A stretch of 26,221 nt of DNA. Source: a virus. Lineage: Duplodnaviria; Heunggongvirae; Uroviricota; Caudoviricetes. This document shows, piece by piece, positions 2,490 to 25,900 of this stretch (position 1 is its first letter; each line of letters opens with the position of its first letter). The notes below the pieces were generated by a model. It was not told the origin of the DNA. It ran no database searches and was given only the letters and a program-made list of their open reading frames with translations. Position numbers and translations under genes: made by a program. The DNA lies in the IMG/VR virus record IMGVR_UViG_2617270943_000001, positions 1 to 26,221 of that record; one strand, 5' to 3'.

Positions 2490-2650
2490 ACAGCTCCCCG
2501 TTTATTATTTATCTCCTCAGCCAGCCGCTGTGCTTTCAGGGGATTTCGGATAACAGAAAGGCCGGGAAATACCCAGCCTCGCTTCGTAACGGAGTAGACG
2601 AAAGTGATCGTGCCTACGCGGATATTATCGTGAGGATGTTTCATCGCCAT
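2462..2650 (-). CDS. Hypothetical small prophage protein, 62 aa
   Basis: Start overlaps the exo stop by about 10 nt, a typical phage operon coupling arrangement. Function unknown. Confidence 0.4.
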
Positions 2651-3321
2651 TGCTCCCCAAATACAAAACCAATTTCAGCCAGTGCCTCGTCCATTTTTTC
2701 GATGAACTCCGGCACCATCTCGTCAAAACTCGCTATATACTTTTCATTCCGCTCAATCACGACATAATGCAGGCCTTCACGCTTCATACGCGGGTCATAG
2801 TTGGCAAAGTACCAGGCATCTTTTCGCGTCACCCACATGCTGTACTGCACCTGGGCCATGTAAGCCGATTTTATTGCCTCGAAACCACCGAGCCGGAATT
2901 TCATGAAATCCCGGGAGGTAAACGGGCATTTCAGTTCAAGGCCGTTGCCGTCACTGCATAAACCATCGGGAGAGCAGGCGGTGCGCATACTTTCGTCGCG
3001 ATAGATGATCGGGGATTCAGTAACATTCACGCCGGAAGTAAACTCAAACAGGGCTCTGGCGTCATTCTCGTACTGTTTTCCCCAGGCCAGCGCCTTAGCG
3101 TTAACTTCCGGAGCCACACCGGTGCAAATCTCAGCCAGCAGGGTGTGAAAGTAGGACATTTTCATGTCAGGCCACTTTTTTCCGGAGCGGGGTTTTGCTA
3201 TCACATTGTGAACTTCTGAAGCCGTGATGACGCCGAGTCGTAATTTGTTCCACGCATCATCTCCCTGTTCGACAGCTCTCACGTCGATCCCGGTACGCTG
3301 CAGGATAATGTCCGGTGTCAT
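2641..3321 (-). CDS. exo: Lambda-type exonuclease (Red alpha), 226 aa
   Basis: Translation [24 protein letters not shown]...[10 protein letters not shown] is near-identical over its full length to phage lambda Exo as I recall it; located directly downstream of bet. Confidence 0.95.
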
Positions 3322-4103
3322 GCTGCCACCTTCTGCTCAGTGGCTTTCTGTTTCAGGAATCCAAGAGCTTTCACTGCTTCGGCCTGTGTCAGTTCTGACG
3401 ATGCGCGAATGTCGCGGCGAAATATCTGGGAACAGAGCGGCAATAAGTCGTCATCCCATGTTTTATCCAGGGCGATCAGCAGAGTGTTAATCTCCTGCAT
3501 GGTTTCATCGTTAACCGGAGTGATGTCGCGTTCCGGCTGACGTTCTGCAGTGTATGCGGTATTTTCGACAATGCGCTCGGCTTCATCCTTGTCATAGATA
3601 CCAGCAAATCCGAAGGCGAGACGGGCACACTGAATCATGGCTTTATGCCGTAACATCCGTTTGGGATGCGACTGCCACGGCCCCGTGATTTCTCTGCCTT
3701 CGCGGGTTTTGAATGGTTCGCGGCGGCATTCATCCATCCACTCGGTAACGCAGATCGGATGATTACGGTCCTTGCGGTAAATCCGGCATGTACATGATTC
3801 ATTGTCCTGCTCAAAGTCCATGCCATCAAACTGCTGGTTTTCATTGATGATACGGGACCAGCCATCAACGCCCACCACCGGAACGATGCCGTTCTGCTTG
3901 TCAGGGAAGGCGTAAATTTCTTTCGTCCACGGATTAAGGCCGTACTGGTTGGCGACGATCAACAATGCGATGAACTGCGCATCGCTGGCATCACCTTTAA
4001 ATGCCGTCTGGCGAAGAGTGGTGATCAGTTCCTGTGGGTCGACAGAATCCATGCCGACACGTTCAGCCAGCTTCCCAGCCAGCGTTGCGAGTGCTGTACT
4101 CAT
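3318..4103 (-). CDS. bet: Single-strand annealing protein Bet (Red beta), 261 aa
   Basis: Translation [48 protein letters not shown]... matches lambda Bet; start/stop overlap with exo as in lambda. Confidence 0.95.
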
Positions 4104-4108
4104 CCGTT

Positions 4109-4405
4109 TTATACCTCTGAATCAATATCAACCTGGTGGTGAGCAATGGTTTCAACCATGTACCGGATGTGTTCTGCCATGCGCTCCTGAAACTCAACAT
4201 CGTCATCAAACGCACGGGTAATGGCTTTTTTGCTGGCCCCGTGGCGTTGCAAATGATCGATGCATAGCGATTCAAACAGGTGCTGGGGCAGGCTTTTTTC
4301 CATGTCGTCTGCCAGTTCTGCCTCTTTCTCTTCACGGGCGAGCTGCTGGTAGTGACGCGCCCAGCTCTGAGCCTCAAGACGATCCTGAATGTAATAAGCG
4401 TTCAT
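4109..4405 (-). CDS. gam: Gam, RecBCD inhibitor (short GamS-type form, 98 aa)
   Basis: Translation [37 protein letters not shown]...[10 protein letters not shown] matches lambda Gam from its internal start; AGGAG Shine-Dalgarno upstream of the ATG at 4405. Confidence 0.9.
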
Positions 4406-4481: not shown

Positions 4482-4772
4482 TTAGTGATTCAGGCCGTTA
4501 CCGCGTCCGTCGAGAAAAACTTCCACGAGCAAATCACTGGTATAAGTGCGCTCGATGCCGCGATGCAGATAAAGCCGTCCGCGTAAATTAGCTGATGCAG
4601 TCCAGGTACCATCTTTGTGTTTGACCAGCATTCCTGGCATGACCGCGCCGCGATTAACGGTCTGTGTTCCGTAATGTTGATGAACCATAAAAACTCCTGC
4701 CCGTAAGCTGGGCTGCTGAACATATAGAGACTTCTGCGCATATTCAGGCGGTGGATGGCCGCCGGTTGTCAT
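4482..4772 (-). CDS. Hypothetical protein, first gene downstream of putative pL (96 aa from ATG at 4772; alternative TTG start at 4892 would add an Arg-rich N-terminus)
   Basis: ORF 4482..4892 on minus strand; the internal ATG at 4772 has a GAGG Shine-Dalgarno, whereas the TTG at 4892 has none. Not recognised as any lambda early protein. Confidence 0.35.
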   Translation of the reverse strand: MTTGGHPPPEYAQKSLYVQQPSLRAGVFMVHQHYGTQTVNRGAVMPGMLVKHKDGTWTASANLRGRLYLHRGIERTYTSDLLVEVFLDGRGNGLNH

Positions 4773-4959
4773 AACTAAGCCGCCTCGTTGAAGCGACTGA
4801 GGTATGAAATGTTGAGTTAATTTCAGCTGGTCACACCGACGTTCACGCGTCCGTTTCACCCCTCGCACTCCCCGAAGCCTGCTGAAATTCAAACTGCGGA
4901 TCTAAGCGGTCATCGCAACGGTGAATCAGGTAGTTGCCGTATCGTTGTGTTGTTGCGAT

Positions 4960-5040
4960 GAACTTATTTAAAACTATAGTTGTTTTATCGTCAACAACAA
5001 AAGTTGTTTTATTGGTTGTTTTAGATATAACTGGTTGTAT
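4960..5040 (-). promoter_or_regulatory. Putative pL promoter and OL operators
   Basis: Minus strand reads TTGTTGTTGACGATAAAACAACTATAGTTTTAAAT, almost identical to the pR module TGGTTGTTGACTAAAAACAACCATAGTTTTAATCT. -35 TTGACG at 4994..4989; several GTTGTT/AACAAC half-sites arranged as dyads. Confidence 0.55.
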
Positions 5041-5120
5041 TTAGGATGGATTTATTTTGTGACTTGAATCGCATAGCGATAACTGAAGCGAGGTTATGGT
5101 GGTTTTTTTAACGGTGTGTG

Positions 5121-5152
5121 TGATGAGGGGAGGGCAAAAGAAAACCCGGCAC
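5121..5152 (-). terminator. Putative rho-independent terminator downstream of cI
   Basis: Minus strand has a CCCGG-8 nt-CCGGG hairpin followed by TTTTCTTTT; lies between the cI stop and the pL region. Confidence 0.4.
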
Positions 5153-5283
5153 GGTGACCGGGATTCTTACGCCGTTAGGTAAAGATATTATTGCGGTGGC
5201 TTAATATTACTACCTAGAGCAAAGATAGGAATTAGTTCTTTACTGAATGAGCACAATGCCCAGTTGATAATTTTTAATTGGTA

Positions 5284-5973
5284 CTACCCATGCTTCCTAT
5301 ATGTCTGCGGCATGCTCCCAATAACCTTACCGAAGATGAACACCCGGTTCATCTCGTCTTTCTCGATCGGGTCCCACGGTGAGTAGCTTTTGTTATCAGA
5401 GATGACCAGCAGCTTATCCTTCATCATTTGCAGGCGCTTTACATGGGCTGTGTCGTCGTACAGAAACGCATAGATACCATCACCGTCGAAAGATTTAACT
5501 GTGATATCAACGAACAGCAGATCACCTGGTTCGATCGTTCCTGACATGCTGTCACCACGCACGTTAATGATGCGGATATTTTCCGCCTTCCTACCATCGA
5601 ACATGTGACGAGCATCGTCAAACGAGTACTCAACCGAGCGTAGAACTTCTACAAACTCACGGTTGATGACTCCCGGCCCAGCACTGACTTCTATATCAAG
5701 AACGTCAATCTTGAAGTATTTGGAATGGCTGACAGTTGATTGTATTGGTTGCACTGTACTGTCTGACATATTTCCAACGCCAGAAGATAACCATTCTGCG
5801 CGCACACCCAAAGCGTTCGCGATCTCCACGATTTTAGTTGTTTGATTAGCTTTCCCTGTTTCGATTTTCTGAATAGCAGCCTGGCTAACCCCGACCAAAT
5901 CCCCAAGCGCCTTTTGTGTAAGGCCTCGCGCTAATCTGGCTTCTTTAAGTCTTTCTGAGAGTGTTGTTTTCAT
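5284..5973 (-). CDS. cI: cI-type repressor: N-terminal HTH plus C-terminal S24 (LexA-like) autopeptidase, 230 aa
   Basis: HTH LTQKALGDLVGVSQAAIQKIE; Ala-Gly cleavage site (SAGPG); catalytic Ser (GDSM) and Lys (VKRL). Divergent from the cro-like gene across an operator-rich spacer. ATG at 5973 has no Shine-Dalgarno, consistent with a leaderless PRM transcript as in lambda. Confidence 0.85.
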   Translation of the reverse strand: MKTTLSERLKEARLARGLTQKALGDLVGVSQAAIQKIETGKANQTTKIVEIANALGVRAEWLSSGVGNMSDSTVQPIQSTVSHSKYFKIDVLDIEVSAGPGVINREFVEVLRSVEYSFDDARHMFDGRKAENIRIINVRGDSMSGTIEPGDLLFVDITVKSFDGDGIYAFLYDDTAHVKRLQMMKDKLLVISDNKSYSPWDPIEKDEMNRVFIFGKVIGSMPQTYRKHG

Positions 5974-5979
5974 AGTCCA

Positions 5980-6077
5980 AATGTACAACCAAGGTTTTAT
6001 TCCATCAAACGAAAATGGTTGTTGACTAAAAACAACCATAGTTTTAATCTTGATTCAAATTAACCACGGAGGTTGTT
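5980..6077. promoter_or_regulatory. OR operators with divergent pR and pRM
   Basis: Dyad TGGTTGTT-7 bp-AACAACCA (6017..6039) overlaps a -35 TTGACT (6022..6027), 17-bp spacer and -10 TAATCT (6045..6050). Further ACAACCA/GGTTGTT half-sites at about 5986 and 6071. GGAGG Shine-Dalgarno before the cro ATG. Confidence 0.6.
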
Positions 6078-6308
6078 ATGAACCCAGCTATCAAAACAGC
6101 GATCAATATCGTTGGTTCACAAAAGAAACTGGGCGCTGCTTGCGAAGTTTCACAGCAGGCCGTCTATAAGTGGCTTCACAACAAAGCAAAGGTATCCCCT
6201 GAACATGTCGGCAGCATTGTTACGGCTACTGGTGGAGTAGTGAAGGCATACCAGATTCGCACGGATCTTCCGAAGTTGTTTCCACACACCGAAAAGAACG
6301 CAGCTTAA
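6078..6308 (+). CDS. cro: Cro-like HTH repressor, 76 aa
   Basis: Small HTH protein (GSQKKLGAACEVSQQAVYKWL) transcribed divergently from cI off the pR-like promoter. Confidence 0.75.
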   Translation: MNPAIKTAINIVGSQKKLGAACEVSQQAVYKWLHNKAKVSPEHVGSIVTATGGVVKAYQIRTDLPKLFPHTEKNAA

Positions 6309-6320
6309 ATTTCCATTTCA

Positions 6321-6333
6321 CGCTCTTTAACAA
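6321..6333 (+). promoter_or_regulatory. boxA-like element (candidate nutR component)
   Basis: CGCTCTTTAACAA lies 13 nt after the cro stop and matches the boxA consensus (lambda CGCTCTTA, rrn GCTCTTTAACAA). No convincing boxB hairpin seen downstream. Confidence 0.4.
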
Positions 6334-6377
6334 TAAGCAATCAACTTAACAGTCAATTCAAACTAAAGGAGTCAATT

Positions 6378-6917
6378 ATGCAACCACTTCCATACCAACA
6401 GACTAGCGGATTTAGCCCGACTGCGGTGATAAATCGTTCTCAAACAAAACAGGTGCCAGGCCACGAAAAAATCCGTGATGCCGTCCGCGCCTGGTCGGCT
6501 GTAGATAATCAGGATGTCGTTGCCACACTCATTGTGAATGAGTATCGGGAGCAGGGCGGCGGCACCATCGATTTCCCTGATGATGTCAGCCGTGCACGCC
6601 AGAAGCTGTTCCGCTTCCTCGATAACAAATTCGATTCTGAAAAATACCGAAATAACGTGCGTGAACTGACCCCGGCAATTCTGGCGGTACTAACGCTGGA
6701 ATATCGCGGTTACCTGGTTGAGCAGGATAGCTTCATGGCCAGGTTGGCTGAAATGGAAAAGGAACTCAGTGAGGCAAAACAGGCTGTCATTCTCAACGCA
6801 CCACGCCACCAGAAACTGAAGGAAATTAGTGAAGGTATTGTATCGATGTTTCGTGTGGACCCAGATCTGGCTGGTCCATTGATGGCGATGGTTACTACCA
6901 TGCTGGGGGCGATATGA
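6378..6917 (+). CDS. YdaT-family protein in the cII position, 179 aa
   Basis: Conserved blocks YREQGGG and ELTPAILAVLTLEYR resemble Rac prophage YdaT as I recall it; located between cro and O; AGGAG Shine-Dalgarno. Confidence 0.65.
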   Translation: MQPLPYQQTSGFSPTAVINRSQTKQVPGHEKIRDAVRAWSAVDNQDVVATLIVNEYREQGGGTIDFPDDVSRARQKLFRFLDNKFDSEKYRNNVRELTPAILAVLTLEYRGYLVEQDSFMARLAEMEKELSEAKQAVILNAPRHQKLKEISEGIVSMFRVDPDLAGPLMAMVTTMLGAI

Positions 6918-7003
6918 CAGGTTCAGAAATGGCGAAAGCCGGTCTGCTGGAACAGAACCGACTTTCAGGTGCAAATCGTAACACACTCATTGCGGGAGGA
7001 ATT

Positions 7004-7933
7004 ATGGCAAACACTGCTGAGATATTCAATTTTCCAGTGCCGGATGCGGCACAAAAGGAGCCGCGCGTGGCAGATCTCGATGATGGTTATACGCGCATTG
7101 CAAATGAGTTGCTGGAAGCTGTGATGCTGGCCGGATTAACACAGCACCAGCTTCTGGTCTTCCTGGCTGTCATGCGCAAAACATATGGCTTTAATAAAAA
7201 ACTGGATTGGGTGAGCAACGAGCAACTGTCCGGATTGACCGGGATATTACCGCACAAGTGTTCTGCTGCAAAAAGTGTTCTGGTAAAGCGTGGGATTTTG
7301 ATTCAGAGCGGGCGGAATATCGGTATTAATAATGTGGTCAGTGAATGGTCAACATTACCCGAATCAGGTAAGAAAAATAAAGTTTACCTGAAAGAGGTAA
7401 ATTTACCTGAATCAGGTAAGAAAAGTTTACCCAAATCAGGTAAAGGCGTTTACCCGAATCAGGTAAACACAAAAGACAAACTAACAAAAGACAATATAAA
7501 ACCTTTTTCGTCCGAGAATTCTGGCGAATCCTCTGACCAACCAGAAAACGATCTTCCTGTGGTGAAACCAGATGCTGCAATTCAGAGCGGCAGCAAGTGG
7601 GGGACAGCAGAAGACCTGACCGCCGCAGAGTGGATGTTTGACATGGTGAAGACCATCGCACCATCAGCCAGAAAACCGAATTTTGCAGGGTGGGCTAACG
7701 ATATCCGCCTGATGCGTGAACGTGACGGACGTAACCACCGCGACATGTGCGTGCTTTTCCGCTGGGCATGCCAGGACAACTTCTGGTCCGGTAACGTGCT
7801 AAGTCCGGCCAAACTCCGCGACAAGTGGACCCAACTCGAAATCAACCGTAACAAGCAACAGGCAGGCATGATAGCCAGCAAACCAAAACTCGACCTGACA
7901 AACACTGACTGGATTTACGGGGTGGATTTATGA
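7004..7933 (+). CDS. O: Replication initiator O (start at internal ATG 7004 with GGGAGGA Shine-Dalgarno)
   Basis: C-terminal about 100 aa (AEWMFDMVKTIAPSARKPNFAGWANDIRLMRERDG...TNTDWIYGVDL) is near-identical to lambda O; N-terminal domain is O-like; contains ori iterons internally. Confidence 0.9.
   Translation: MANTAEIFNFPVPDAAQKEPRVADLDDGYTRIANELLEAVMLAGLTQHQLLVFLAVMRKTYGFNKKLDWVSNEQLSGLTGILPHKCSAAKSVLVKRGILIQSGRNIGINNVVSEWSTLPESGKKNKVYLKEVNLPESGKKSLPKSGKGVYPNQVNTKDKLTKDNIKPFSSENSGESSDQPENDLPVVKPDAAIQSGSKWGTAEDLTAAEWMFDMVKTIAPSARKPNFAGWANDIRLMRERDGRNHRDMCVLFRWACQDNFWSGNVLSPAKLRDKWTQLEINRNKQQAGMIASKPKLDLTNTDWIYGVDL
7356..7468 (+). repeat. Origin iterons: five tandem copies of about 18 bp (TTTACCCGAATCAGGTAA-like), followed by an A-rich tract
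   Basis: Direct repeats at about 7356, 7383 (degenerate), 7402, 7426 and 7448 inside O, followed by ACACAAAAGACAAACTAACAAAAGACAATATAAAAC, mirroring the lambda ori layout. Confidence 0.75.
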
Positions 7934-8997: not shown

Positions 8998-9330
8998 ATG
9001 AACCCTTATATTTATCTTGGTGGTGCAATACTTGCAGAGGTCATTGGTACAACCTTAATGAAGTTTTCAGAAGGTTTTACACGGTTATGGCCATCTGTTG
9101 GTACAATTATTTGTTATTGTGCATCATTCTGGTTATTAGCTCAGACGCTGGCTTATATTCCTACAGGGATTGCTTATGCTATCTGGTCAGGAGTCGGTAT
9201 TGTCCTGATTAGCTTACTGTCATGGGGACTTTTCGGCCAACGGCTGGACCTGCCAGCCATTATAGGCATGATGTTGATTTGTGCCGGTGTGTTGGTTATT
9301 AATTTATTGTCACGAAGCACACCACATTAA
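8998..9330 (+). CDS. emrE: SMR-family multidrug efflux transporter EmrE, 110 aa
   Basis: Translation MNPYIYLGGAILAEVIGTTLMKFSEGFTRLWPSVG... matches E. coli EmrE (the DLP12-borne gene) with four predicted TM helices; ATG at 8998 preceded by AGGAAAG. Confidence 0.9.
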   Translation: MNPYIYLGGAILAEVIGTTLMKFSEGFTRLWPSVGTIICYCASFWLLAQTLAYIPTGIAYAIWSGVGIVLISLLSWGLFGQRLDLPAIIGMMLICAGVLVINLLSRSTPH

Positions 9331-9584: not shown

Positions 9585-11111
9585 ATGAAAAAAGCCATAG
9601 CATATATGCGATTTTCATCACCAGGTCAGATGTCTGGCGACTCATTAAACCGACAGAGAAGACTTATTGCTGAATGGTTAAAGGTAAATAGTGATTATTA
9701 TCTTGATACCATAACATATGAAGATTTAGGATTAAGTGCATTCAAAGGAAAGCATGCACAATCAGGAGCTTTTTCGGAATTTTTAGATGCTATAGAGCAT
9801 GGTTATATATTGCCAGGAACTACATTGTTAGTTGAAAGTCTGGACAGACTTTCAAGAGAAAAAGTCGGTGAAGCGATTGAACGTCTGAAATTGATTTTGA
9901 ATCACGGTATTGATGTTATAACTCTTTGCGACAATACAGTCTATAATATTGACTCTTTGAATGAGCCATATTCATTAATAAAAGCCATACTTATAGCACA
10001 AAGGGCAAATGAAGAAAGCGAGATAAAGTCAAGTCGGGTTAAATTATCATGGAAGAAAAAACGGCAGGATGCACTGGAATCAGGTACGATTATGACGGCG
10101 TCTTGTCCGAGATGGCTCTCCTTAGATGACAAAAGAACGGCTTTTGTTCCAGACCCCGACAGGGTGAAAACTATTGAGCTAATTTTTAAACTCAGGATGG
10201 AAAGGCGCTCATTGAATGCAATAGCCAAGTATTTAAATGATCATGCTGTAAAGAATTTCTCAGGAAAAGAAAGTGCATGGGGACCTTCTGTAATTGAAAA
10301 ATTATTAGCGAATAAAGCTCTGATAGGTATATGCGTACCTTCATATCGTGCAAGAGGTAAAGGAATAAGTGAAATCGCTGGCTATTATCCCAGAGTCATA
10401 TCAGATGATTTGTTTTACGCTGTACAGGAAATTCGGTTGGCACCTTTTGGTATTAGCAATAGTAGCAAAAATCCTATGTTGATAAATCTACTTCGAACAG
10501 TTATGAAGTGCGAGGCTTGTGGTAATACCATGATTGTTCATGCGGTATCTAGAAGTTTGCATGGCTATTATGTTTGTCCGATGAGAAGACTGCATCGATG
10601 TGACAGGCCATCAATAAAGAGAGATTTGGTTGATTATAATATCATTAATGAGTTGCTTTTTAATTGTAGTAAAATCCAACCAGTTGAAAACAAGAAAGAT
10701 GCTAATGAAACTTTAGAGTTGAAAATTATTGAGCTCCAGATGAAAATTAATAATTTAATTGCTGCATTATCTGTTGCGCCTGAAGTTACCGCTATAGCAG
10801 AAAAAATCAGAGTATTAGATAAGGAATTACGAAGGGCTTCTGTATCATTAAAAACTTTGAAGAGTAAAGCGGTGAGTTCACTTGGTGATTTTCATGCTAT
10901 TGACTTAACCAGTAAAAATGGGCGAGAGCTATGTCGTACACTTGCCTATAAAACATTCGAAAAAATCATAATCAATACAGATAATAAAACCTGTGATATC
11001 TATTTTATGAATGGCATTGTTTTTAAACACTATCCTTTAATGAAAACAATATCCGCCCAGCAGGCGATAAGTACTCTCAAATATATGGTTGATGGTGAGG
11101 TTTATTTTTGA
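9585..11111 (+). CDS. ybcK: Large serine recombinase (resolvase/invertase-type N-terminal domain with recombinase and zinc-ribbon extension), 508 aa
   Basis: N-terminal AIAYMRFSSPGQ with catalytic-Ser context and LLVESLDRLSR motif; C-terminal CxxC...C cluster; AT-rich codon usage; resembles DLP12 YbcK. Confidence 0.8.
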   Translation: MKKAIAYMRFSSPGQMSGDSLNRQRRLIAEWLKVNSDYYLDTITYEDLGLSAFKGKHAQSGAFSEFLDAIEHGYILPGTTLLVESLDRLSREKVGEAIERLKLILNHGIDVITLCDNTVYNIDSLNEPYSLIKAILIAQRANEESEIKSSRVKLSWKKKRQDALESGTIMTASCPRWLSLDDKRTAFVPDPDRVKTIELIFKLRMERRSLNAIAKYLNDHAVKNFSGKESAWGPSVIEKLLANKALIGICVPSYRARGKGISEIAGYYPRVISDDLFYAVQEIRLAPFGISNSSKNPMLINLLRTVMKCEACGNTMIVHAVSRSLHGYYVCPMRRLHRCDRPSIKRDLVDYNIINELLFNCSKIQPVENKKDANETLELKIIELQMKINNLIAALSVAPEVTAIAEKIRVLDKELRRASVSLKTLKSKAVSSLGDFHAIDLTSKNGRELCRTLAYKTFEKIIINTDNKTCDIYFMNGIVFKHYPLMKTISAQQAISTLKYMVDGEVYF

Positions 11112-11255
11112 GTAATAATCACTTTTTCAACCGTGCTATAGTAAGAAAGTTAGGTAAGTACATTTAGACTGGCCCCCTGAATCTCCAGACAACCAATATC
11201 ACTTAAATAAGTGATAGTCTTAATACTAGTTTTTAGACTAGTCATTGGAGAACAG

Positions 11256-11621
11256 ATGATTGATGTCTTAGGGCCGGAGAAACGCAGACGGCGTACCACA
11301 CAGGAAAAGATCGCAATTGTTCAGCAGAGCTTTGAACCGGGGATGACGGTCTCCCTCGTTGCCCGGCAACATGGTGTAGCAGCCAGCCAGTTATTTCTCT
11401 GGCGTAAGCAATACCAGGAAGGAAGTCTTACTGCTGTCGCCGCCGGAGAACAGGTTGTTCCTGCCTCTGAACTTGCTGCCGCCATGAAGCAGATTAAAGA
11501 ACTCCAGCGCCTGCTCGGCAAGAAAACGATGGAAAATGAACTCCTCAAAGAAGCCGTTGAATATGGACGGGCAAAAAAGTGGATAGCGCACGCGCCCTTA
11601 TTGCCCGGGGATGGGGAGTAA
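11256..11621 (+). CDS. insC: IS2 transposase OrfA (InsC)
   Basis: Translation [47 protein letters not shown]... with HTH; ends just after the AAAAAAG slippery heptamer at 11573..11579. Confidence 0.9.
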
Positions 11622-12484
11622 GCTTAGTCAGCCGTTGTCTCCGGGTGTCGCGTGCGCAGTTGCACGTCATTCTCAGACGAACCGATGACTGGATGGATGG
11701 CCGCCGCAGTCGTCACACTGATGATACGGATGTGCTTCTCCGTATACACCATGTTATCGGAGAGCTGCCCACGTATGGTTATCGTCGGGTATGGGCGCTG
11801 CTTCGCAGACAGGCAGAACTTGATGGTATGCCTGCGATCAATGCCAAACGTGTTTACCGGATCATGCGCCAGAATGCGCTGTTGCTTGAGCGAAAACCTG
11901 CTGTACCGCCATCGAAACGGGCACATACAGGCAGAGTGGCCGTGAAAGAAAGCAATCAGCGATGGTGCTCTGACGGGTTCGAGTTCTGCTGTGATAACGG
12001 AGAGAGACTGCGTGTCACGTTCGCGCTGGACTGCTGTGATCGTGAGGCACTGCACTGGGCGGTCACTACCGGCGGCTTCAACAGTGAAACAGTACAGGAC
12101 GTCATGCTGGGAGCGGTGGAACGCCGCTTCGGCAACGATCTTCCGTCGTCTCCAGTGGAGTGGCTGACGGATAATGGTTCATGCTACCGGGCTAATGAAA
12201 CACGCCAGTTCGCCCGGATGTTGGGACTTGAACCGAAGAACACGGCGGTGCGGAGTCCGGAGAGTAACGGAATAGCAGAGAGCTTCGTGAAAACGATAAA
12301 GCGTGACTACATCAGTATCATGCCCAAACCAGACGGGTTAACGGCAGCAAAGAACCTTGCAGAGGCGTTCGAGCATTATAACGAATGGCATCCGCATAGT
12401 GCGCTGGGTTATCGCTCGCCACGGGAATATCTGCGGCAGCGGGCTTGTAATGGGTTAAGTGATAACAGATGTCTGGAAATATAG
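11579..12484 (+). CDS. insD: IS2 transposase OrfB (InsD; DDE catalytic domain, expressed by -1 frameshift fusion to OrfA)
   Basis: The ORF is in the -1 frame relative to insC and overlaps it by 43 nt; sequence matches IS2 InsD as recalled, with the DDE catalytic core expected for an IS3-family OrfB. Confidence 0.9.
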
Positions 12485-12558: not shown

Positions 12559-12882
12559 ATGGATGCTGGCGTTCTCGTTCTAGCAGTTCAACAATACCCA
12601 ATCACAAAACAATTCACTGATAACGAACTTTGCACACTCGCCTGGTTATGGCGAGCAGGGAATGTGATGTTAATTACCTACCAGAACGTTACTCCTCTTC
12701 TTCAGGTTGCGGAGCATCGTGAAGCTGGTCGCTTCACTTCTATCGAGCAAGAATATCCCCAGATACTCAATAAGGCACAGGCAATCCTTGCCAGAGAAAC
12801 GGCACATGTAAAATTCCGGCCGTGGCAGGATGATAAGTGGAGTCGAGTTTTGCCGCATTTACGTTCGGATCGATTACAGTAG
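12559..12882 (+). CDS. Hypothetical protein, 107 aa (orphan ORF immediately right of IS2)
   Basis: ORF with ordinary codon usage; no recognisable motif; not a lambda nin-region gene. Confidence 0.4.
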   Translation: MDAGVLVLAVQQYPITKQFTDNELCTLAWLWRAGNVMLITYQNVTPLLQVAEHREAGRFTSIEQEYPQILNKAQAILARETAHVKFRPWQDDKWSRVLPHLRSDRLQ

Positions 12883-13700: not shown

Positions 13701-13887
13701 AACCTTTGATTTGCGATAATCAACTCGCCATAATCATGTCATCGGAGCCTGAACAACTCCGGTGACTTCTGCGCTAAACGGGGACGTTTATGCGCACACA
13801 CAATCCAAACTCTCTTCTCCCTCCAAAGATGCAGAAATGCACCTGCGATATATTGTATCCAGCGTTTGACCTCTGCGGAGGTGAAGC

Positions 13888-22933: not shown

Positions 22934-25900
22934 ATGGCAGTAAAGATTTCAGGTGTACTGAAAGACGGCACAGGAAAACCGGTACAGAACTGCACAATCC
23001 AGCTGAAAGCAAAACGTAACAGCACCACGGTGGTGGTGAACACGCTGGCCTCAGAAAATCCGGATGAAGCCGGGCGTTACAGCATGGACGTTGAGTACGG
23101 GCAGTACAGCGTTATTCTGTTGGTGGAGGGATTCCCGCCGTCACATGCCGGGACCATCACCGTGTATGAAGATTCCCGACCCGGTACGCTGAATGATTTT
23201 CTCGGTGCCATGACGGAGGATGATGCCCGTCCTGAGGCACTGCGCCGTTTTGAACTGATGGTGGAAGAGGTGGCGCGTAACGCGTCCGCGGTGGCACAGA
23301 ACACGGCAGCCGCGAAGAAGTCAGCCAGCGATGCCGGCACATCAGCCCGTGAGGCGGCAACCCATGCGACTGATGCTGCAGGCTCAGCACGCGCAGCCAG
23401 CACGTCAGCCGGACAGGCCGCTTCGTCGGCTCAGTCAGCGTCTTCCAGCGCAGGAACGGCATCAACAAAGGCCACTGAAGCGGAAAAAAGTGCTGCCGCT
23501 GCAGAGTCCTCAAAAAGCGCGGCGGTCACCAGTGCCGCTGCGGCGAAAACGTCAGAAACGAATGCGGCAGCGTCACAACAATCAGCAGCCACTTCTGCAT
23601 CCGCCGCGACCACGAAGGCGTCAGAAGCAGCCACCTCAGCCCGGGATGCGGCGGCCTCAAAAGAGGCAGCGAAATCATCAGAAACGAACGCATCATCAAG
23701 CGCCAGTAGTGCCGCTTCCTCGGCAACGGCGGCAGGCAATTCCGCGAAGGCGGCAAAGACGTCTGAGACAAACGCCAGGTCTTCTGAAACGGCAGCGGGA
23801 CAGAGCGCCTCGGCTGCGGCAGGCTCAAAAACAGCGGCTGCGTCGTCTGCCAGTGCCGCGTCAACAAGTGCCGGGCAGGCCTCAGCCAGTGCCACCGCCG
23901 CCGGAAAATCGGCAGAAAGCGCCGCATCGTCTGCTTCAACAGCCACAACGAAGGCTGGCGAAGCCACTGAACAGGCCAGCGCAGCAGCAAGGTCTGCTTC
24001 CGCAGCGAAGACATCCGAGACGAACGCGAAAGCGTCGGAAACCAGCGCAGAATCCTCAAAAACGGCTGCCGCATCGTCCGCCAGTTCGGCGGCGTCATCG
24101 GCATCATCGGCGTCTGCTTCAAAAGATGAGGCGACCAGACAAGCGTCCGCAGCGAAGGGCAGCGCCACGACGGCATCCACGAAGGCGACAGAGGCAGCTG
24201 GCAGTGCGACGGCGGCAGCACAGAGCAAAAGTACGGCGGAATCCGCGGCAACGCGCGCCGAGACAGCGGCAAAACGGGCAGAGGATATTGCATCCGCCGT
24301 GGCGCTTGAGGATGCAAGTACGACGAAAAAGGGGATAGTACAGCTCAGCAGTGCGACCAACAGTACGTCTGAAACGCTGGCGGCAACGCCAAAGGCAGTA
24401 AAATCAGCCTATGACAATGCAGAGAAACGTCTGCAGAAAGACCAGAACGGCGCTGATATACCCGATAAGGGACGCTTCCTGAACAACATTAACGCGGTCA
24501 GTAAAACAGACTTTGCTGATAAGCGTGGTATGCGTTATGTGCGGGTTAACGCTCCTGCAGGTGCAACATCTGGAAAATATTACCCTGTTGTTGTTATGCG
24601 TTCTGCTGGCTCAGTAAGCGAACTGGCATCAAGGGTCATTATCACCACGGCAACGCGAACCGCAGGCGATCCGATGAATAACTGCGAGTTTAACGGATTT
24701 GTTATGCCTGGTGGCTGGACTGACAGGGGGCGTTATGCTTATGGAATGTTCTGGCAATATCAAAACAATGAACGAGCCATCCACTCAATAATGATGAGTA
24801 ATAAGGGCGATGATTTGCGCTCTGTGTTCTATGTTGATGGCGCTGCTTTCCCTGTTTTTGCGTTTATCGAAGATGGCCTGTCAATATCCGCACCTGGTGC
24901 TGATCTCGTTGTTAATGATACGACCTATAAGTTTGGGGCAACAAATCCGGCGACTGAATGTATCGCGGCGGACGTTATCCTTGATTTTAAGAGTGGGCGT
25001 GGTTTTTATGAGTCTCATTCGTTAATCGTTAACGATAACTTGTCGTGCAAAAAACTTTTTGCCACAGACGAAATTGTAGCGCGTGGTGGTAATCAGATTC
25101 GAATGATAGGTGGGGAGTATGGGGCATTATGGCGTAATGATGGCGCTAAAACTTACCTGCTGCTTACCAATCAAGGTGATGTTTATGGTGGCTGGAATAC
25201 ATTAAGACCGTTTGCTATTGATAACGCAACCGGCGAACTGGTTATTGGAACCAAACTGTCCGCAAGTCTGAACGGTAATGCATTAACAGCAACAAAGCTG
25301 CAAACGCCAAGACGGGTTTCTGGTGTTGAGTTTGATGGTTCCAAAGATATTACTTTAACCGCCGCGCATGTGGCTGCTTTTGCCAGAAGGGCAACGGATA
25401 CATATGCCGATGCGGATGGTGGCGTTCCCTGGAATGCCGAATCAGGCGCTTATAATGTCACCCGCTCTGGCGACAGCTATATTCTGGTTAACTTCTATAC
25501 CGGAGTCGGAAGTTGCCGGACCTTGCAGATGAAGGCGCATTACAGAAATGGTGGTCTGTTCTACCGTTCTTCAAGAGACGGTTATGGTTTTGAGGAAGAC
25601 TGGGCAGAAGTTTATACCTCGAAAAATCTTCCACCAGAAAGCTACCCAGTCGGCGCACCAATCCCGTGGCCATCAGATACCGTTCCGTCTGGTTATGCCC
25701 TGATGCAGGGGCAGACTTTTGACAAATCTGCTTACCCGAAACTTGCAGCCGCTTATCCGTCAGGCGTGATCCCTGATATGCGTGGCTGGACGATTAAGGG
25801 CAAACCTGCCAGTGGTCGGGCCGTATTGTCTCAGGAACAGGACGGCATTAAATCGCATACCCACAGCGCCAGCGCATCCAGTACAGATTTGGGGACGAAA

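Follow-up and report, generated by a model that had tools for sequence, protein, structure and literature searches.

Does a gene that carries a toxin's name, and that lies where a lambdoid phage would have its cII gene, encode a toxin or a regulator of lysogeny? The question is raised by a 26,221 nt stretch of DNA from a virus of the Caudoviricetes (positions 1 to 26,221 of IMG/VR record IMGVR_UViG_2617270943_000001; this whole stretch is referred to below as the window), in which an open reading frame (ORF) at 6378–6917 on the plus strand, with an ATG start, encodes a protein of 179 aa that RefSeq names 'toxin YdaT domain-containing protein'. We put at about 0.8 the probability that this gene, here called cII, is the prophage's CII-equivalent regulator of lysogeny establishment, its product being a YdaT-family helix–turn–helix (HTH) transcription factor and not a toxin, and that it works by the mechanism proposed below.

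The first step concerns what the protein is. The ORF was confirmed as real, and its product matches the Pfam family PF06254 (YdaT_toxin, DUF1019) over residues 67–154 (E=1.7e-28; 99.3 bits, cut-off 21) and PHROG_163, 'CII-like transcriptional activator', with residues 17–179 covering positions 1–168 of the 168 in the profile (E=1.1e-65); in hhalign it aligns with YdaT of the E. coli K-12 cryptic prophage Rac with a probability of 97.4% (E=1e-11). A sequence search of the PDB matched both YdaT structures weakly (8BT1, E=0.006; 3C4R, E=0.016). When the AlphaFold2 model (mean predicted local distance difference test score, pLDDT, 78) was compared with the PDB by Foldseek, 3c4r_A and 8bt1 were found at a probability of 1.00, with template modelling (TM) scores of 0.64–0.70, root-mean-square deviations of 3.1–3.6 Å and 25–26% identity, and no match other than YdaT structures was found below E=1. 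The original prediction, made from the sequence alone, had assigned YdaT similarity to exactly this ORF and had named the failure of a profile search to detect it as grounds for withdrawal; both the ORF and the similarity stand. Similarity to lambda CII was not detectable, there being no Phage_CII (PF05269) match at E≤1 in Pfam and an hhalign probability of 1.5%.

The predicted model contains helices at residues 29–43, 45–58, 70–82, 88–104, 107–113, 119–138, 143–160 and 162–177. The first five (α1–α5, residues 29–113) form a POU-like HTH domain, with 70–82 as the recognition helix, and are followed by the long α6 (119–138), so that in the model the protein has the five-helix POU-like domain and long oligomerization helix of the YdaT family. 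Arg79, equivalent to Arg57 of Rac YdaT, is invariant in an alignment of the protein with Rac YdaT and ten phage homologues, and the recognition helix, from R72 to N83, is almost invariant across the phi80-type clade described below. In the YdaT crystal structure a POU-like HTH domain is combined with a four-helix-bundle tetramer, and the protein binds TTGATT-N6-AATCAA (PMC9986795); the double substitution H56A/R57A abolishes binding by Rac YdaT, for which R57 is needed (PMC11879457). By analogy, the present protein most likely oligomerizes via its long helices, as YdaT tetramers do.

Which branch of the family is this? In tblastn searches of phage genomes the protein was 99.4% identical to a 'CII-like transcriptional activator' of phage Turner and 94–99% identical to proteins annotated 'cII' in 15 other E. 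coli phage records; more distant matches were found in CobraSix (72%), mEp237 (CII, 66%), phi80 (cII, 65.6%), and HK225 and HK639 (cII, 51%). On these comparisons the protein is a phi80-type cII product, from a branch of the YdaT family (PHROG_163) that comprises phi80, mEp237, HK225, HK639, CobraSix and Klebsiella prophages. The phi80 protein (PHI80_49, 180 aa) is alike over its full length, with similar N- and C-terminal extensions. It had been claimed that a YdaT protein replaces cII between cro and O. The place was given correctly, being the cII slot of a lambdoid immunity region, and the replacement was not: the gene is phi80-type cII itself, and is annotated so. The phi80 cII gene was defined genetically, and GenBank annotations name it accordingly; our literature search on phi80 cII genetics gave no open-access primary paper. 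Phage records already carry annotations for this known type of protein. It is also extremely common in E. coli: 2305 of 5426 complete genomes (over 40%) contain the 1.8 kb immunity segment.

Compared with Rac YdaT (140 aa), the protein is longer by 28 aa at its N-terminus and by about 38 aa at its C-terminus (PRHQKLKEISEGIVSMFRVDPDLAGPLMAMVTTMLGAI), as seen in the alignment with Rac YdaT and the ten phage homologues. Both extensions are conserved in every phi80-type cII examined and are therefore features of the clade, not peculiar to this copy; an extended C-terminal region had been noted earlier as a property of this copy, and while the extra residues are indeed there, they are clade-typical and are accompanied by the N-terminal extension. 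Residues 1–25 are disordered in the model (the N-terminal extension is 25–28 aa across the clade). The C-terminal extension forms two predicted helices, α7 (143–160) and α8 (162–177), with pLDDT of about 84–90, unlike YdaT of Rac and YdaT of the O157:H7 cryptic prophage CP-933P, in which the tail is disordered, as reported for the residues past the oligomerization helix in CP-933P (PMC9986795). The simplest guess is that these helices would lengthen the tetramerization bundle. The C-terminus of lambda CII carries an FtsH degron, and a stability tag of this kind in the present extension would be speculation by analogy. Rac and CP-933P YdaT otherwise differ from the protein in their lower identity (about 25–31%), shorter length (140–141 aa) and absence of the 28-aa N-terminal extension, and resemble it in Pfam family, POU-like HTH fold, long α6 and DNA-binding Arg.

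The position of the gene provides the second line of evidence. Its immediate surroundings are as follows.

5284–5973, minus strand: cI-type repressor (HTH and S24 peptidase domains; Pfam, PHROG and RefSeq), divergent from the cro-like gene; most likely coding span
6078–6308, plus strand: cro-like gene of the YdaS family, 76 aa (PF15943 YdaS, E=6.6e-16; P22_Cro, E=8e-5; PHROG_35)
6366–6371, plus strand: Shine–Dalgarno sequence AAGGAG of cII, 6 nt before the ATG at 6378, read from the sequence
6378–6917, plus strand: cII

The repressor ORF reaches 6039 in the ORF list, and the RefSeq protein starts with MKTTLSE. The cII gene lies past the Cro/YdaS gene, opposite the repressor gene and ahead of the replication genes, as a YdaT-family gene should; it is followed by lambda O (PF04492, E=2.4e-33) and P (PF06992, E=8e-62) and, beyond these, ren, emrE and ybcK, the neighbours together making a complete lambdoid early region. 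Gene order in phi80 is identical (cI, cro-like gene 30, cII, the oop-like M3 RNA and O-like gene 15); phi80 differs in its immunity module (cI, cro and operators) and in a cro–cII spacer of 30 bp, compared with 69 bp here. With lambda the locus shares the slot between cro and O, followed, here as candidates, by an oop-type antisense RNA and a pO promoter. From such genetic context YdaS and YdaT have been argued to be the equivalents of Cro and CII and not a toxin–antitoxin (TA) pair (PMC5917428), and YdaT has been stated to be homologous to phi80 CII (PMC8630535). The view of YdaT as a CII-like regulator rather than a toxin, put forward in the original prediction, matches these reports and two others (PMC9986795, PMC11879457).

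If the protein is a DNA-binding regulator, where would it bind? A search upstream of cI and int for direct-repeat sites like those of lambda CII had been suggested. Lambda CII recognizes the direct repeat TTGCN6TTGC, which occurs once in the window, at 25513, against 2.2 occurrences expected by chance, and not near cI, cII or int; this chance-level match, with no relation to either cI or int, was rejected as a CII site, and the relevant predicted site is instead an inverted repeat. When the published YdaT box was sought near cII with up to 3 mismatches, merely weak matches were obtained (6327–6344 and 6050–6067), and these too were set aside. The cro–cII spacer holds a direct repeat, AGTCAATT, at 6351–6358 and 6370–6377. 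Its second copy lies between the Shine–Dalgarno sequence and the ATG of cII. The spacer that holds both copies spans just 2–30 bp in other clade members, so the repeat is not a feature of the family, and it was rejected as a CII site.

Comparison of homologous loci identified a different site, inside cII, and a leftward −10 hexamer close to it.

6426–6443, inverted repeat: predicted CII/YdaT box GTGATAAATCGTTCTCAA, dyad TGA-N10-TCA, in cII codons 17–22; conserved across homologous loci
6400–6405, minus strand: predicted −10 TAGTCT of a leftward, pRE-like promoter, in cII codons 8–10; TAnnnT conserved

Every phi80-type locus has a like dyad at +48 to +65 of the cII ORF. The sample consisted of 70 loci from different Enterobacteriaceae species (39–74% protein identity) together with phage loci, giving 67 unique 5′ sequences and 30 unique boxes. 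Within the box, T2, G3, A4, T15 and C16 never vary, 29 of the 30 unique boxes have A17, and the spacer is variable. Codon 21 ends in T in 67/67 sequences although it specifies N, A, S, C, Y, F and others; for Ile18 the codon is the rare ATA (58 sequences) or ATT (9), never ATC; and residue 17 is M, L or V, with a codon that is always xTG. At the putative −10, all 73 phi80-type sequences have a minus-strand TAnnnT exactly 20 nt from the box, with 11 hexamers represented. Codon 9 has T as its last base in 67/67, whether it specifies N, S, D, G, T or I, and codon 10 starts with A throughout. As a population check we used 54 distinct E. coli alleles, in which 82 of 540 gene sites vary and none of the 24 box and −10 positions does; a scan of viral contigs yielded just copies 95–99% identical, of no use for covariation but drawn on for this check. 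The same box, 20-nt gap and leftward TAnnnT occur in Rac (TATGAT), a CP-933P-like phage (TATGAT, read by hand as the script's strict core missed its box) and a Klebsiella ST405 phage (TAGCAT), and equal geometry was read by hand from the sequences of Chris1 (TATTAT) and Aeromonas pAEv1818 (TAACAT).

In phi80 the box is at +48 and the −10 at +23, as here, and the dyad is weaker here (GTGATA...TCTCAA) than in several relatives. The box remains constant while the cI, cro and operator modules differ between phages, so the site belongs to, and travels with, cII and not the repressor. An inverted-repeat operator of the TTGATT-N6-AATCAA form near the start of the gene is thus represented by the predicted box, in its TGA-N10-TCA core and conserved position. 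Rac and CP-933P likewise have a box of this form at the gene start, 20 nt from a leftward TAnnnT, in a gene that follows YdaS/Cro, although their box overlaps the start codon whereas the one here lies 48 nt inside the ORF. Rac YdaT binds ATGATTCATGAAAATCAA, overlapping its own start codon, and raises racR expression 29-fold in a box-dependent manner (PMC11879457), and CP-933P YdaT activates the silent leftward promoter PRE933P (PMC8630535).

Our working hypothesis is that cII is expressed on the rightward early transcript, after cro, and that its product, oligomerized through its long helices, binds the YdaT-box-type inverted repeat nTGATw-N6-wnTCAn within codons 17–22 of cII itself. Given the −10 in codons 8–10, the box would have its centre at about −41.5 relative to a leftward start, the classical position of a class II activator, which predicts a start near 6393; binding would then activate the pRE-like promoter in class II fashion. 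From the conservation of box and spacing we infer this start and its activation by CII. The predicted RNA would run antisense to the ribosome-binding site of cII and to cro, and would read on into cI, like the pRE RNA of lambda. Lambda CII resembles the present protein, as predicted here, in having a pRE-type promoter within the 5′ end of its gene and in its expected role, the activation of repressor synthesis. It differs in its length (97 aa), in lacking any detectable sequence relationship, in binding a direct instead of an inverted repeat, and in its phage context, no cIII gene and no pI-type site having been found here.

Could the same protein act elsewhere in the prophage? The window contains a second site.

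13706–13723, plus strand: second, perfect box TTGATTTGCGATAATCAA, the sole perfect TTGATT-N6-AATCAA match in the window
13729–13734, plus strand: −10 CATAAT of a rightward promoter, of which the box at 13706–13723 forms the −35 and spacer

Box and promoter lie in the gap before orf33-ybcN-ninE-ybcO-rusA-ylcG-Q, that is, upstream of ninB...Q. Phage 82, HK639, CobraSix and KO-TP1 retain the half-sites and the −10, with a variable spacer and unrelated upstream sequence; phi80 and HK225 have a perfect TTGATA-N6-TATCAA at the equivalent place, which in phi80 is upstream of a ninB-like gene, and mEp237 has a related site. In the record of phage 82, X92588, a −35 and a −10 are marked as putative, together with a hairpin labelled 'possible regulator-binding site'. 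Every complete phage genome that shares the second-box segment (by megablast) also has a phi80-type cII, a co-occurrence that may reflect linkage of modules. Occupancy of positions −35 to −18 predicts repression, and CII would probably also lower transcription toward the late-gene activator Q; the promoter is a candidate for CII repression and control of Q. The predicted lowering of Q resembles the outcome of the CII-dependent promoter paQ in lambda. A position weight matrix (PWM) scan of the window gave no further credible boxes.

In the leader RNA past the nin promoter, at about 13738–13770, a hairpin stem reads CCGGAG/CTCCGG here and CTGCCAG/CTGGCAG in phi80, with a conserved loop, CCTGAACAAC. 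The hairpin is the element flagged in X92588, and it looks like a boxB- or put-like RNA element; it has no Rfam match.

Several observations weigh against this hypothesis. Of its 12 half-site positions the box in cII has 4 that differ from the published consensus, the TGA/TCA core alone being kept, and the −10 TAGTCT is weak and without a −35, as would be expected of an activator-dependent promoter; for this reason the promoter is not recognizable alone. Part of the DNA conservation could reflect constraint on the protein at M/L/V-I and x-Q/H, and the sequences compared are phylogenetically related, so the counts given above overstate independence. The second box has a PWM score of 13.8; maxima in shuffled sequence averaged 12.7 and reached 17.2, so this score is not significant alone, and we credit the box because of its conservation across phages and not its score. 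The analogy with lambda is also incomplete: no box was found near int, and the interval from kil to cI (4690–5284) yielded neither cIII nor N. The best candidate for a pI-type box upstream of int, at 1501–1518, was rejected for its poor right half and the lack of a TAnnnT 20 nt away. In the published Rac model the activated promoter, PracR4, is about 190 bp from the box and not adjacent to it, PracR4 being itself a predicted promoter, and a term search of that paper turned up no mapping of a YdaT-dependent start (PMC11879457). Finally, the searchable literature holds no experiment on this protein or on any member of the phi80 clade.

The alternative that survives best is that the protein is mainly a YdaT-family repressor or roadblock, acting for example at the nin/Q promoter and on its own translation, and not an activator of cI, with the label cII being positional. 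The perfect box over the −35 and spacer of a consensus-like promoter has the geometry of a repressor site, a tetramer bound to the box at 6426–6443, inside the cII coding sequence, could block transcription from pR, and YdaT has been termed the equivalent of a 'CII repressor' (PMC9986795); furthermore, CP-933P YdaT was without effect on PRM, PR and PL (PMC8630535). A pure roadblock, however, leaves unexplained a leftward TAnnnT held at an invariant 20 nt via synonymous sites, and it is difficult to reconcile with the strong, box-dependent activation of leftward reporters in Rac (29-fold) and CP-933P (PMC11879457, PMC8630535). We consider this alternative unlikely, and the repressor and activator roles are in any case not mutually exclusive.

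That the protein is the toxin of a YdaS/YdaT TA pair seems to us very improbable. The idea has the Pfam family names (YdaT_toxin and YdaS_toxin) and the RefSeq name in its favour, together with the filamentation and death that follow overexpression of Rac YdaT, yet that toxicity has been traced to rcsA, whose transcription Rac YdaT activates (PMC11879457), no toxicity is seen with CP-933P YdaT (PMC8630535), and the TA assignment came from a prediction algorithm, without experimental support (PMC5917428). The fold points the same way: in place of the enzymatic or target-poisoning fold of a toxin, the predicted model has, as in the crystal structure (PMC9986795), a POU-like HTH DNA-binding domain and an oligomerization helix. 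The gene, moreover, fills the cII slot in a lambdoid early region that is otherwise complete.

Just as improbable is a true start at codon 17 (GTG here, ATG in most homologues), which would make the first 16 codons untranslated regulatory DNA and the 179-aa product an artefact: the PHROG_163 profile begins at residue 17, the preceding residues fall in the disordered part of the model (1–25), the old phi80 record X13065 annotates a cII of 132 aa, and Rac and CP-933P YdaT begin at the box, but AAGGAG is optimally spaced before the ATG at 6378 with no Shine–Dalgarno sequence ahead of codon 17, this codon is CTG or TTG (Leu) in 20/67 homologues, of which CTG (in Klebsiella phages) is not a start codon, the reading frame and M1, L4 and Q7 are conserved across the clade, and modern phi80, HK and mEp annotations use the long form.

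Returning to CII as an activator of the leftward promoter in cII, it is tempting to extend the proposal. On a broader reading, which we hold tentatively and regard as somewhat more likely to be wrong than right, all YdaT-type CII proteins (phi80 clade, Rac and CP-933P) would share one undescribed promoter design, with the box at −41.5, to which phi80-type phages would add shut-off of nin/Q. The −10 and activator site would be placed in the first 22 or so codons of cII in the phi80 clade and at the ydaS–ydaT junction in Rac and CP-933P, which departs from the published model of activation in Rac from 190 bp away.

In K-12 Rac (NC_000913, 1420651–1420694) the published YdaT box is accompanied by a good leftward −10, TATGAT (1420651–1420656), exactly 20 nt off, which would place the start near 1420644. 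As judged from sequence, this geometry suggests a proximal YdaT-activated promoter instead of, or besides, PracR4, and the comparative data suggest that the model of activation from a distance should be re-examined.

What follows from the identification? The gene call itself matters little, phi80-type cII being common and already annotated, but the RefSeq name 'toxin YdaT' misleads surveys of TA and defence systems and should be corrected. The added value is modest and lies in this correction, in the recognition of both terminal extensions as clade features, and in a testable map, comprising the box (6426–6443) with its −10 (6400–6405) and the second box (13706–13723) on the nin/Q promoter, with a possible revision of how pRE is activated by YdaT-type CII proteins. 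If the broader reading is true, N-less DLP12-type phages would have a lysis–lysogeny switch with two targets, raising cI and lowering Q.

Between cII and O, where phi80 and HK639 records annotate an M3/oop-like RNA, further candidate elements were found.

6926–6994, minus strand: candidate antisense RNA (oop/M3-like) in the cII–O interval; hairpin at 6934–6966
7001–7029, minus strand: pO-like promoter, TTGAAT-17-CATAAT, TG-extended, its −10 overlapping the O ATG at 7004
7004–7933, plus strand: replication gene O, with probable true start at 7004 and Shine–Dalgarno sequence GGGAGGA

The 86-bp gap between cII and O thus holds the pO-like promoter and the oop/M3-like RNA, both on the minus strand. 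The hairpin has a folding energy of −24.1 kcal/mol (z=−2.8). Nothing in the window matched Rfam at gathering thresholds, so the identification of the candidate RNA comes from promoter, hairpin and synteny alone. The overlap of −10 and ATG is conserved with lambda pO/O, phi80 and HK639. O most likely starts at 7004, because the PHROG_277 profile begins at residue 31 of the long ORF, and alignment with the starts of phi80 gene 15 and lambda O also supports this position. The ATG at 6914, which forms an ATGA overlap with the cII stop and is used by RefSeq, phage Turner and some phage records, is probably an unused over-extension.

On the other side of the repressor gene the early region continues leftward.

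2641–3321, minus strand: exo
3318–4103, minus strand: bet
4109–4405, minus strand: gam
about 4485–4688, minus strand: kil

The interval 4690–5284 holds a pL-like promoter (TTGACG...TTTAAAT, minus strand, about 4960–4995) and ACAAC/GTTGT operator-like repeats, and an intrinsic terminator lies past cI at 5162–5145. Between cI and cro, the operator region 5985–6049 contains two 18-nt direct copies, ACAACCAAGGTTTTATTC and ACAACCATAGTTTTAATC, 47 bp apart, and a 9-bp perfect inverted repeat, ATGGTTGTT/AACAACCAT; these repeats are probably the CI/Cro operators of this immunity type.

A near-identical locus is present in E. coli MS6198, where the element adjoins tRNA-Arg/intD, which identifies the prophage as a full-length lambdoid prophage of the DLP12 family (at argU). 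Directly past ren lie emrE (8998–9330, multidrug efflux) and ybcK (9585–11111, serine recombinase), as in K-12 DLP12. The emrE cargo travels on active phages, since the free-living phage Turner has the same emrE/QacE-like gene past ren. A pair of IS3-family transposase genes (136 and 301 aa, in overlapping frames) at 11211–12484 sits between ybcK and a C-terminal fragment of a P22 antirepressor (12559–12882), and is missing from the otherwise collinear MS6198 prophage.

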